The notes under the pieces were generated by a model that worked only from the letters and a program-made list of their open reading frames with translations, searched no databases and had not been told where the DNA came from. DNA of 64,000 nucleotides from positions 969,288-1,033,287 of the forward strand of contig OZ250162.1 of the NCBI GenBank assembly GCA_965238025.1. Reading direction: 5' to 3'. Position numbers and translations under genes: made by a program. Within the stretch, counting starts at the first letter, position 1. Each line of letters starts with the position of its first letter. The DNA comes from Aggregatimonas sp. (lineage in GTDB: Bacteria > Bacteroidota > Bacteroidia > Flavobacteriales > Flavobacteriaceae). Below are positions 30,455 to 31,260 of the stretch, piece by piece.

Positions 30455-31260
30455 TGGGGCGGCTTATCGTCCTTAGATAAACTTGGTAACAAGGATAAAT
30501 CCGCTAGCGGGCACAGCAAGCGGAGACTGTTTTTTGCAATACAGTGCAGGTAAGCAAGCAGCTAACATAGGTCATGATTTGCAAGGGGCAACCGCTTAAG
30601 CAAATTAGGTCTTATAGCCAATACTTTTGGGTAGGCTTGAGATGGAGACATCAATAGGTAAAGTTGTAGTAATAGGTTACGTATAGGTCATCCAACCTAG
30701 CGGGGCTTATTGCAGCAGGAAAGGTACCCGATGGAAAACTGTTCGGTAGCTTAAAGTGCTGTGTGTCGGGAGACATACAAGAAGAAGGTTGGTATTTTGT
30801 GGACAAAATCTACGGAGCCATTCTCGAAGCCCTTCTTCTAGGTCAAAGTTTTGTTTGGGTTCGATTCCCGAGAGAAACCACGCACCTCTTAGCTCATTTG
30901 GGAGCATCAGAATAAGCAAAAGACTTCGAGCATTGTGGCAGTTAGTAGTTGCCTAAACCCATTGTGATATATGGGGTGGTAGAGGTCGCAAGCCTATACC
31001 GTGCGGTGAACATTCTAATAGGTCGCCCTAAAAAGGGACACCTATGAACGGTGGGGGAGCCAACCCCTGTAATTGCAAAGCGTGACAAAATAGTCACTAT
31101 GCAAGCCAAGTCTAAGTTGCCGAACAGCTACAATGATTTATGGCATCGGATGAATACGTGATTTCCAAAGCAACGGAGAGAACGTGGAAAAGTAGGGAAA
31201 GCTTCGGCCATAATCCTACGAAAGTTCATCCATAAGCGTGGGTATTCCCAGTACGCTTTT
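30455..31260 (+). ncRNA. large structured ncRNA, GOLLD-like (boundaries approximate)
   Basis: ORF-free, many GNRA-capped hairpins, next to a tRNA array; 3' region GTGGAAAAGTAGGGAAAG...ATAATCCTACGAAAG resembles the GOLLD 3' domain as I recall it (not computed). Confidence 0.55.

Follow-up and report, generated by a model that had tools for sequence, protein, structure and literature searches.

A divergent GOLLD RNA in a chromosomal RNA-repair island of a flavobacterium and its possible place in an RNA-damage regulon

The sequence analysed here, called the window, is a 64,000-nucleotide (nt) stretch of the chromosome of the marine flavobacterium Aggregatimonas sp. (Flavobacteriaceae; assembly GCA_965238025.1, contig OZ250162.1, positions 969,288 to 1,033,287 of the forward strand), and coordinates are counted from its first letter. 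It carries an island (17263-33132) that encodes an HTH-WYL-WCX regulator, a 205-amino-acid (aa) protein, two RlaP nucleotidyltransferases, a 225-aa protein, RtcB1, a DUF4209 protein, RtcB2, PrfH, a TPR protein, 16 transfer RNAs (tRNAs), a block of structured RNA and a Band-7/SPFH protein. Within the RNA block, at 30436-31262 (+) and with a leader from 30386, lies what is almost beyond doubt the gene for a GOLLD RNA. This RNA represents a divergent chromosomal Bacteroidota subfamily of GOLLD that scores under the Rfam cut-off. A first-pass annotation, made from the letters alone, had outlined a large RNA at 30455-31260 within a chromosomal repair island. The location was right, though the RNA is longer, since a covarying 5' hairpin at 30436-30456 and the leader belong to it; the description of the island also holds, with its two rtcB genes, prfH, RlaP and WYL genes and no phage genes. 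Collectively, the data are best explained by a GOLLD RNA that is part of an RNA-damage regulon, a reading to which we assign a probability of about 0.7.

The Rfam model of GOLLD (RF02032) aligns over its entire length (model positions 1-416 of 416) to 30780-31256 (+), with a score of 127.7 bits and an E-value of about 1e-34 (1.4e-34 to 6e-35). The alignment displays the family stretches GGUAUU, AAGCAAAAGACUUCG, CUAA, GGUCGCAAGCC, GUGGAAAAGUAGGGAA...AUAAUCCUAC.GAAAG and GUAUUCCCA. The curated gathering score of the family, an operational cut-off and not a structural feature, is 150 bits; the nine scored members of the clade range from 110 to 138 bits and canonical phage copies from 293 to 302 bits. 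This shortfall is mainly caused by inserts and one missing hairpin in the Rfam alignment. Since the score lies under 150, the RNA is missed by a default Rfam scan; indeed, such a scan of the window, run at the gathering threshold, reported tRNAs only. At relaxed thresholds, GOLLD, tRNAs and weak YrlA matches were found and nothing else, so that a group I or II intron, a tmRNA or an RNase P RNA was rejected. The ROOL model, proposed along with that of GOLLD for a search in the first-pass annotation, gave no match at E-values up to 10 in 28500-32100. GOLLD is present as a single copy in the genome, which is one 4.04-Mb contig.

Of the 5' region, the RF02032 model takes in no more than the last stem, before continuing through the linker and the 3' region, and the 5' half was therefore compared with that of canonical GOLLDs, carried by two viral contigs (L142 and L062; 302 and 293 bits, respectively). 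A hidden Markov model (HMM) of the Bacteroidota alignment matches the 5' halves of both (HMM positions 36-526; nhmmer E-values 2.5e-14 and 5.3e-13), and two blocks, GGCGG.UUA.CGUC.UUAGAUAA and UUGAGAUGGAGACAUCAA.AGGAAAAG, are common to Bacteroidota and phage GOLLDs. Judging from these alignments, the 5' half is homologous to that of canonical phage GOLLDs. The two-part build of GOLLD, in which the 5' region is the less conserved one, is thus seen at this locus, with a 5' region, a linker and a 3' region that together exceed 800 nt (Table 1).

Homologues were surveyed by a DNA-pattern scan of contigs, one genome per species, using the invariant 5' word CTTATCGTCCTNAGATAAAC. The scan returned 34 loci in Flavobacteriaceae and Saprospiraceae; the former belong to Maribacter, Winogradskyella, Dokdonia, Jejuia, Psychroserpens, Spongiimicrobium and Wocania, and the latter comprise seven genomes. 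All 34 loci match the HMM and 33 contain full-length homologues (about 800-920 nt, both halves), the last one (L019) being clipped by the end of the locus. The same word has no match in IMG/VR viral contigs, and a general motif, AAGCAAAAGNCTTCG, produced mostly chance matches in viral contigs, with a GOLLD in only 2 of 118 loci.

The structure was derived with RNAalifold from an alignment of 34 sequences (A1). It contains 210 pairs in 35 helices, and 128 of these pairs show compensatory double changes, versus 34-49 in controls where the partners are slid. Similarly, 97.0% of the alignment cells are paired, compared with 38-47% after sliding the partners by 1-3 columns, and none of 500 shuffles reached the observed covariation. 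Helices 17-35, those of the 3' half included, match the consensus structure of Rfam; most of them have changed on both sides of the pairs, with 93-100% of cells paired. These data show that GOLLD is maintained here by selection on base pairing. A lack of covariation among homologues, which had been named beforehand as one of the results that would speak against the RNA, was not what the alignment gave. All hairpins and long-range helices that had been read from the letters sit where they were placed, each within a covariation-supported helix (Table 1). No consistent pairing was found for a helix closing the leader motif on the 3' trailer.

The GC content of 30386-31270 is 0.41-0.46, above that of the surroundings. 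This segment has no open reading frame (ORF) of more than 70 aa, the longest being 50-70 aa, and across the 34 homologues the longest ORF shifts its strand, frame and position. Since no ORF is conserved, a protein-coding reading was rejected, in line with the initial impression that the segment holds no credible ORF.

The RNA block is preceded by a palindrome whose strict form was defined as YTRCGCA-N7-TGCGYAN (21 base pairs). Only three copies of this strict form exist in the 4.04-Mb genome, all inside the island; the two others stand ahead of the RlaP operon and of rtcB1 (Table 1), which gives substance to the stress operator suspected in the first-pass annotation. The co-regulation that had been proposed with RtcB, PrfH and a WYL activator is retained in part, as the operator is common to the RlaP operon and rtcB1 but absent at rtcB2-prfH. 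The box CAAATTTG, which follows the palindrome of the RNA block, has counterparts at the same 8-nt spacing after the palindromes at 18938 and 21470 and in the Saprospiraceae loci, and is presumably a promoter element.

The palindrome is located 86-365 nt upstream of GOLLD in 20 of the 34 loci, including five of six in Saprospiraceae. In this family, the palindrome, the -7-like box, a short hairpin, the leader motif, a hairpin and GOLLD follow each other in this order, and the RNA is solitary among unrelated genes, neither tRNAs nor genes of the island being present within 8 kb. Orthologues of the WYL regulator, with 49-69% identity, occur in five of the six GOLLD-bearing Saprospiraceae genomes and have the palindrome beside them; at four of these genes, the palindrome separates the gene from a divergently oriented rtcB1 orthologue. 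Five Saprospiraceae genomes (4-8 Mb each) together contain only 12 strict sites, of which four are upstream of GOLLD and four beside WYL genes. This phylogenetic footprint is evidence for a control element that GOLLD holds in common with the WYL/rtcB1/RlaP core, whether GOLLD is linked to this core or not. Shared control of GOLLD with rtcB1 and RlaP thus appears likely from the arrangement of these sites, and the HTH-WYL-WCX protein is the most likely binder of the palindrome, where it would presumably act as an activator or a repressor. The palindrome regulon is very small, with three sites in this genome and one to five per Saprospiraceae genome (L160-L179), and nearly all sites are found next to WYL regulator genes (and rtcB1) or ahead of GOLLD.

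Within the genus, GOLLD is present in 4 of 16 genomes, and 3 of 15 congeners have it at the syntenic place. A PrfH orthologue is encoded by all four GOLLD-bearing genomes and by two fragmented metagenome-assembled genomes in which no GOLLD was found; the remaining ten genomes have neither. Across seven flavobacterial genera, the order tRNA array, GOLLD, Y-like RNA (described below) and Band-7 gene recurs, and the TPR, PrfH and RtcB2 genes are found upstream where the 8-kb loci reach that far. In Dokdonia, GOLLD is situated inside the tRNA array. The array of the window is a spare set of 16 closely spaced tRNA genes at 28813-30105 (+), none of which encodes its CCA, and ends 330 nt upstream of GOLLD, and the rtcB2-prfH pair is 2-5 kb upstream of the RNA. 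The composition of the array differs between genera, with 1 to 16 tRNAs upstream of GOLLD. Adjacent tRNA genes and tRNA-like motifs in the linker, both frequent though not universal features of GOLLD, are thus present here and absent in Saprospiraceae.

Transcription was assessed in RNA libraries. In four of them, metatranscriptome contigs 90-98.5% identical to the window cover 30432-31230, with a depth of nearly zero on both sides; for instance, one contig of 401 nt has six differences and another of 557 nt has its linker replaced. These observations support transcription of GOLLD in relatives. Four runs from the strain's own sample look like DNA or are too thin. The assemblies of this sample (runs X1 and X2) break at the 30-nt word 30452-30481, because this word is also present in other, low-depth contigs; other GOLLD-bearing organisms probably live in the same sample.

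Table 1. Features of the RNA block and of the associated control elements and genes (window coordinates)
Feature	Position	Strand	Description
HTH-WYL-WCX regulator gene	17263-18282	-	Pfam WYL and WCX domains; candidate palindrome binder
Operator copy	18938-18958		ahead of RlaP operon
Operator copy	21470-21490		ahead of rtcB1
Palindrome CTACGCA-TAATAAT-TGCGTAG	30126-30146		ahead of RNA block; conserved in congeners
CAAATTTG	30155-30162	+	8 nt after palindrome; resembles Bacteroidota -7 box (TAnnTTTG)
tRNA-shaped companion RNA with large insert	30175-30384	+	acceptor, D and T arms read from sequence
GOLLD leader	30386-30429	+	motif AAAGTTCATTGAAA (30386-30399) and hairpin GAAGCTC/GAGCTTC (30403-30424), then AAAATC
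GOLLD 5' region	30436-30839	+	helices 1-18, covarying; includes invariant GGGGCGGCTTATCGTCCTTAGATAAACTTGG
CTTG-GTAA-CAAG	30482-30493		helix 4, covariation-supported
GATG-GAGA-CATC	30641-30652		helix 12, covariation-supported
GTGTGTC-GGGA-GACATAC	30761-30778		helix 16, covariation-supported
GOLLD variable linker	30840-30917	+	degenerate permuted tRNA-like module
GOLLD 3' region	30918-31258	+	helices 19-35, covarying; motifs AAGCAAAAGACUUCG, GGUCGCAAGCC, GUGGAAAAGUAGGGAA, AUAAUCCUAC, GUAUUCCCA
GAGG-TCGCAAG-CCT	30982-30995		helix 22, covariation-supported
GTAGGG/TCCTAC	31192-31219		helix 33, covariation-supported
AAGCG/CGCTT	31234-31258		helix 35, covariation-supported
U-tract and trailer TTTTTAAAATAT	31259-31270	+	conserved in nearly all 34 homologues
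Leader motif copy 2 (31336-31348) and Y-RNA-like RNA (about 31360-31662)	31336-31662	+	
Band-7/SPFH protein gene	32032-33132	+	Pfam Band_7

Most Bacteroidota loci have the leader motif conserved ahead of GOLLD, and the leader hairpin that follows varies by compensating substitutions. The core of the motif, GTTCWTTGA, is also present 12 nt before GGCGG in the two canonical phage GOLLDs (L142:11859 and L062:3512), where it stands after sigma-70-like promoter hexamers. This position behind promoter hexamers in phages indicates that GTTCWTTGA is part of the GOLLD transcript and not of the island. No pairing partner of the motif was found, and it may be a processing or 5'-end signal. At the opposite end of the RNA, a simple terminator scan made no call at the U-tract after the 3' hairpin, which ends at 31258. 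Elsewhere in the window, three copies of AAGTTCATGGTAA, which resembles the leader motif, occur at 6236, 6454 and 6719 (+), about 220-265 nt apart; in the segment that holds them (6113-7079), all ORFs are shorter than 120 aa and no tandem repeat was detected.

The linker is variable, with lengths of 31-119 nt among homologues. Here it consists of a T arm (30855-30871), a short closed acceptor-like stem and a D arm (about 30890-30906), and an anticodon-like arm is often next in line. A T-loop motif was recognized in 23 of the 34 linkers and a D-arm motif in 16, T always before D; both are absent from the linkers of Saprospiraceae (31-56 nt). In the acceptor-like stem, an average of 5.25 out of 7 positions are paired, compared with 3.28 in cross-sequence controls, and the stem is built from 11 different sequence pairs. 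The linker element thus has a circularly permuted tRNA shape, the acceptor end of which is closed and not free. A real tRNA gene in the linker was rejected, as none was called by ARAGORN or by the tRNA or YrlA models and the element is a permuted remnant.

Two further RNAs flank GOLLD. The upstream one, a tRNA-shaped companion, carries about 135 nt of inserted sequence in its variable region, and its anticodon loop is enlarged; it gives a weak Rfam tRNA match (18 bits) and no ARAGORN call. In Maribacter it stands upstream of GOLLD, being present in the window and in locus L007, partial in L006 and absent in L005, whereas in several Winogradskyella it is downstream of GOLLD. This companion is separate from GOLLD and variable. 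The downstream RNA is preceded by an exact second copy of the leader motif, spans about 300 nt and combines a Y-RNA-like stem (CUGGUC / CUUGAC) with two permuted tRNA-like modules, the second of which resembles the module of the GOLLD linker. With the Rfam YrlA model it scores 34.3 bits, below the cut-off of 69. In 20 Flavobacteriaceae loci this Y-like RNA is conserved on the downstream side of GOLLD, and in seven it directly adjoins the 3' end of GOLLD. No Ro60/TROVE domain was found in the whole genome, although the control genomes gave matches. In most Flavobacteriaceae loci the Band-7 gene lies 760-1080 nt beyond GOLLD, and its position next to the Y-like RNA fits the predicted "Band-7-associated tRNA" systems. 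The segment between them (31690-31960, +) has no long ORF, ends in CCGGTTTTTT and is about 80% conserved within the Maribacter clade only; it is partly self-complementary, as the HMM matches the opposite strand at the same place.

Ordinary genes border the island, encoding an AddAB-like helicase-nuclease, a LytTR two-component pair and a short-chain dehydrogenase. Neither phage nor integrase genes were seen, and blastn of phage and plasmid collections retrieved nothing similar, so that the phage or prophage setting, usual for GOLLD and not defining it, is replaced by a chromosomal one. Congeners without the island keep the AddB and short-chain dehydrogenase genes on the left and differ on the right, and no clean empty site was found. 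The 205-aa protein, initially labelled an HD hydrolase, has no Pfam match.

In the proposed mechanism, damage to the translation machinery would lead the palindrome-binding regulator, most likely the HTH-WYL-WCX protein, to turn on GOLLD together with rtcB1 and RlaP. The primary transcript would start near 30170 and be processed into the tRNA-shaped RNA and GOLLD, and perhaps also the Y-like RNA. By analogy with GOLLD env-38, the released GOLLD could assemble as a homo-oligomeric cage with the tRNA-like linker module facing inward, and such a cage could hold or shield tRNAs, ribosomal parts or repair factors, or act as a decoy for RNA-cutting toxins. Both cage formation and a repair role are inferences. 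Whether membership of the RNA-damage regulon extends to a role in the RNA-damage response is, in our judgement, an even question, and each single mechanism taken for itself is improbable. A bolder and rather doubtful proposal is that GOLLD is a cellular damage-induced cage, a dedicated member of a WYL-controlled RtcB repair regulon and more than a phage accessory. In that case, ribotoxins or translation inhibitors that damage tRNAs or ribosomes would lead the regulator to trigger rtcB1, RlaP and GOLLD jointly; in flavobacteria, the inner tRNA-shaped modules could gather or shield broken or spare tRNAs and ribosomal parts for religation, or the cage could instead soak up attacking nucleases. 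If true, phage GOLLDs could be the same device, sustaining translation in an infected cell under attack.

Several observations weigh against a GOLLD RNA under the control of an RNA-damage regulon. The gathering score is not reached, the palindrome is missing ahead of rtcB2-prfH and 14 of the 34 loci have no palindrome within reach. In many of these loci GOLLD stands directly after tRNAs, so its promoter may be further upstream. Furthermore, one Saprospiraceae genome (G061) carries its only palindrome at GOLLD, and no orthologue of the WYL protein was detected in it at E<1e-5. The matching RNA-library contigs stem from relatives and may contain DNA, and their drop in depth may reflect less conserved flanks that fail to match at 85% identity. 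Finally, known GOLLDs are mostly phage-borne, so the one described here could be a hitch-hiker of a horizontally moving tRNA array. This last point underlies the main rival explanation, according to which the RNA is a genuine GOLLD and a passenger of a horizontally transferred, ultimately phage-derived tRNA array, with no tie to repair, the palindrome being merely the promoter type used across the island. Such a history would agree with the typical occurrence of GOLLD in phages and prophages near tRNA islands and within horizontally acquired chromosomal tRNA clusters of mycobacteria (PMC6582537), with the Dokdonia copy inside a tRNA array and with the patchy presence in 4 of 16 genomes of the genus. 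The solitary Saprospiraceae GOLLDs argue against it, since the palindrome they retain is the one also found next to WYL and rtcB1 at other places in the same genomes. The strong purifying and compensatory selection across two families, the lack of flanking phage genes and the absence of related sequences from phage, plasmid and viral-contig collections point in the same direction, and we consider a mere passenger unlikely.

The same solitary copies bear on the possibility that there is no independent RNA at all and that the segment is a structured spacer or leader, serving the processing of the tRNA-array transcript or the control of Band-7. Its position between the tRNA array and the Y-like RNA with the Band-7 gene, all on the same strand, the Y-like RNA abutting the 3' end of GOLLD in seven loci and the silent terminator scan could be understood in this way. 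However, Saprospiraceae have the 800-nt RNA as a solitary gene, equipped with an operator and a promoter-like box of its own and without tRNAs or Band-7; homologous free-standing phage GOLLDs have promoter-like sites and terminator hairpins with a T-run, and GOLLD env-38 assembles alone in vitro. A spacer is thus very unlikely. Still less probable, to the point of being negligible, is a new large non-coding RNA class with a superficial likeness to GOLLD, which had been the fallback of the first-pass annotation. It could appeal to the 127.7 bits that stay under the gathering score, but the E-value of about 1e-34 over the whole model, the covarying helices that are those of the Rfam consensus, the common family motifs and the homology of the 5' half to GOLLDs above the gathering score led us to reject it. 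The same evidence turns the initially noted resemblance to GOLLD into an identification, and a GOLLD RNA belonging to an RNA-damage regulon remains the preferred explanation of the locus.

GOLLD RNA, reportedly the subject of a 2009 study by Weinberg et al., has been known since that year and its cage structure since 2024, with almost all examples coming from phages or uncultured samples. Here it is chromosomal, in marine flavobacteria that can be cultivated (Maribacter, Winogradskyella). This cultivable chromosomal setting, the rare operator and a link that is kept even when the genes are unlinked make for a concrete and testable hypothesis of function, namely that GOLLD could be induced together with RtcB-type repair upon damage to the translation machinery. 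The case offers organisms that can be grown, together with a candidate cis-element and regulator for such work, and shows that the Rfam cut-off conceals a whole cellular GOLLD subfamily. The RNA family, its tRNA neighbourhood, the linker pseudo-tRNA and the chromosomal occurrence in tRNA clusters are already in print. We did not find in print the Bacteroidota subfamily below the cut-off, the operator tie to WYL and RtcB or the solitary operator-bearing copies, and a literature search, which did not include Burroughs and Aravind 2016, returned no paper naming both GOLLD and RtcB.

The RNA shares with the GOLLD of RF02032 a length of about 830 nt, the 3' helices and motifs, adjoining tRNA genes, a tRNA-like element in the linker and an arrangement in which a variable linker joins a homologous 5' region to a conserved 3' region; with two canonical phage GOLLDs it also shares GTTCWTTGA ahead of the 5' end. 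Unlike typical GOLLDs, the Bacteroidota clade scores 110-138 bits and is chromosomal without phage genes nearby, a rare palindrome common with RNA-repair genes stands in front, and the linker holds no tRNA gene but a permuted tRNA-like remnant with T before D and a closed acceptor. GOLLD env-38 was shown to self-assemble as a D7 14-mer cage that encloses its linker, pull-downs of GOLLD brought ribosomes along, and linkers sometimes contain tRNAs (Kretsch et al., bioRxiv 10.1101/2024.12.08.627333). The 14-mer cage is known only for env-38. ROOL has a similar usual setting, tRNA islands, and is a presumed RNA-only cage, but its fold is unrelated.

The closest published chromosomal case is the "32 tRNA cluster" of Mycobacterium aubagnense, M. 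abscessus M24 and M. conceptionense, which contains a GOLLD (PMC6582537). There too a chromosomal GOLLD is part of a horizontally acquired tRNA array, and a pseudo-tRNA inside the GOLLD gene is comparable with the tRNA-like element seen here; tRNAs or pseudo-tRNAs in GOLLD linkers are thus already published (bioRxiv 10.1101/2024.12.08.627333; PMC6582537). The mycobacterial clusters differ in phylum and in having an HNH endonuclease as neighbour instead of RtcB, PrfH and WYL, and no common operator is described for them.

As for the repair genes, Band-7/b7a-tRNA/RtcB systems were predicted to be RNA-repair units (Burroughs and Aravind 2016, as reported in bioRxiv 10.1101/312249). As far as this secondary account goes, the island resembles them and the Salmonella rsr-yrlBA-rtcBA locus in combining an RNA ligase operon, tRNA-mimicking non-coding RNAs and a dedicated regulator, and resembles the Band-7 systems in having a Band-7 gene directly after a tRNA-like RNA; GOLLD is missing from these descriptions of RtcB-centred repair loci. 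Unlike the Salmonella locus, which is regulated by RtcR, the island has a WYL-type regulator, and the genome has no Ro60/TROVE gene. After cleavage by colicin E3, ribosomes are rescued and religated by the RtcB2-PrfH module (Tian et al. 2022; PMC9223846; PMC13166195). As described, it is protein-only; here a GOLLD RNA is found near rtcB2-prfH, though this pair lacks the palindrome, and every GOLLD-bearing genome of the genus has a PrfH orthologue.

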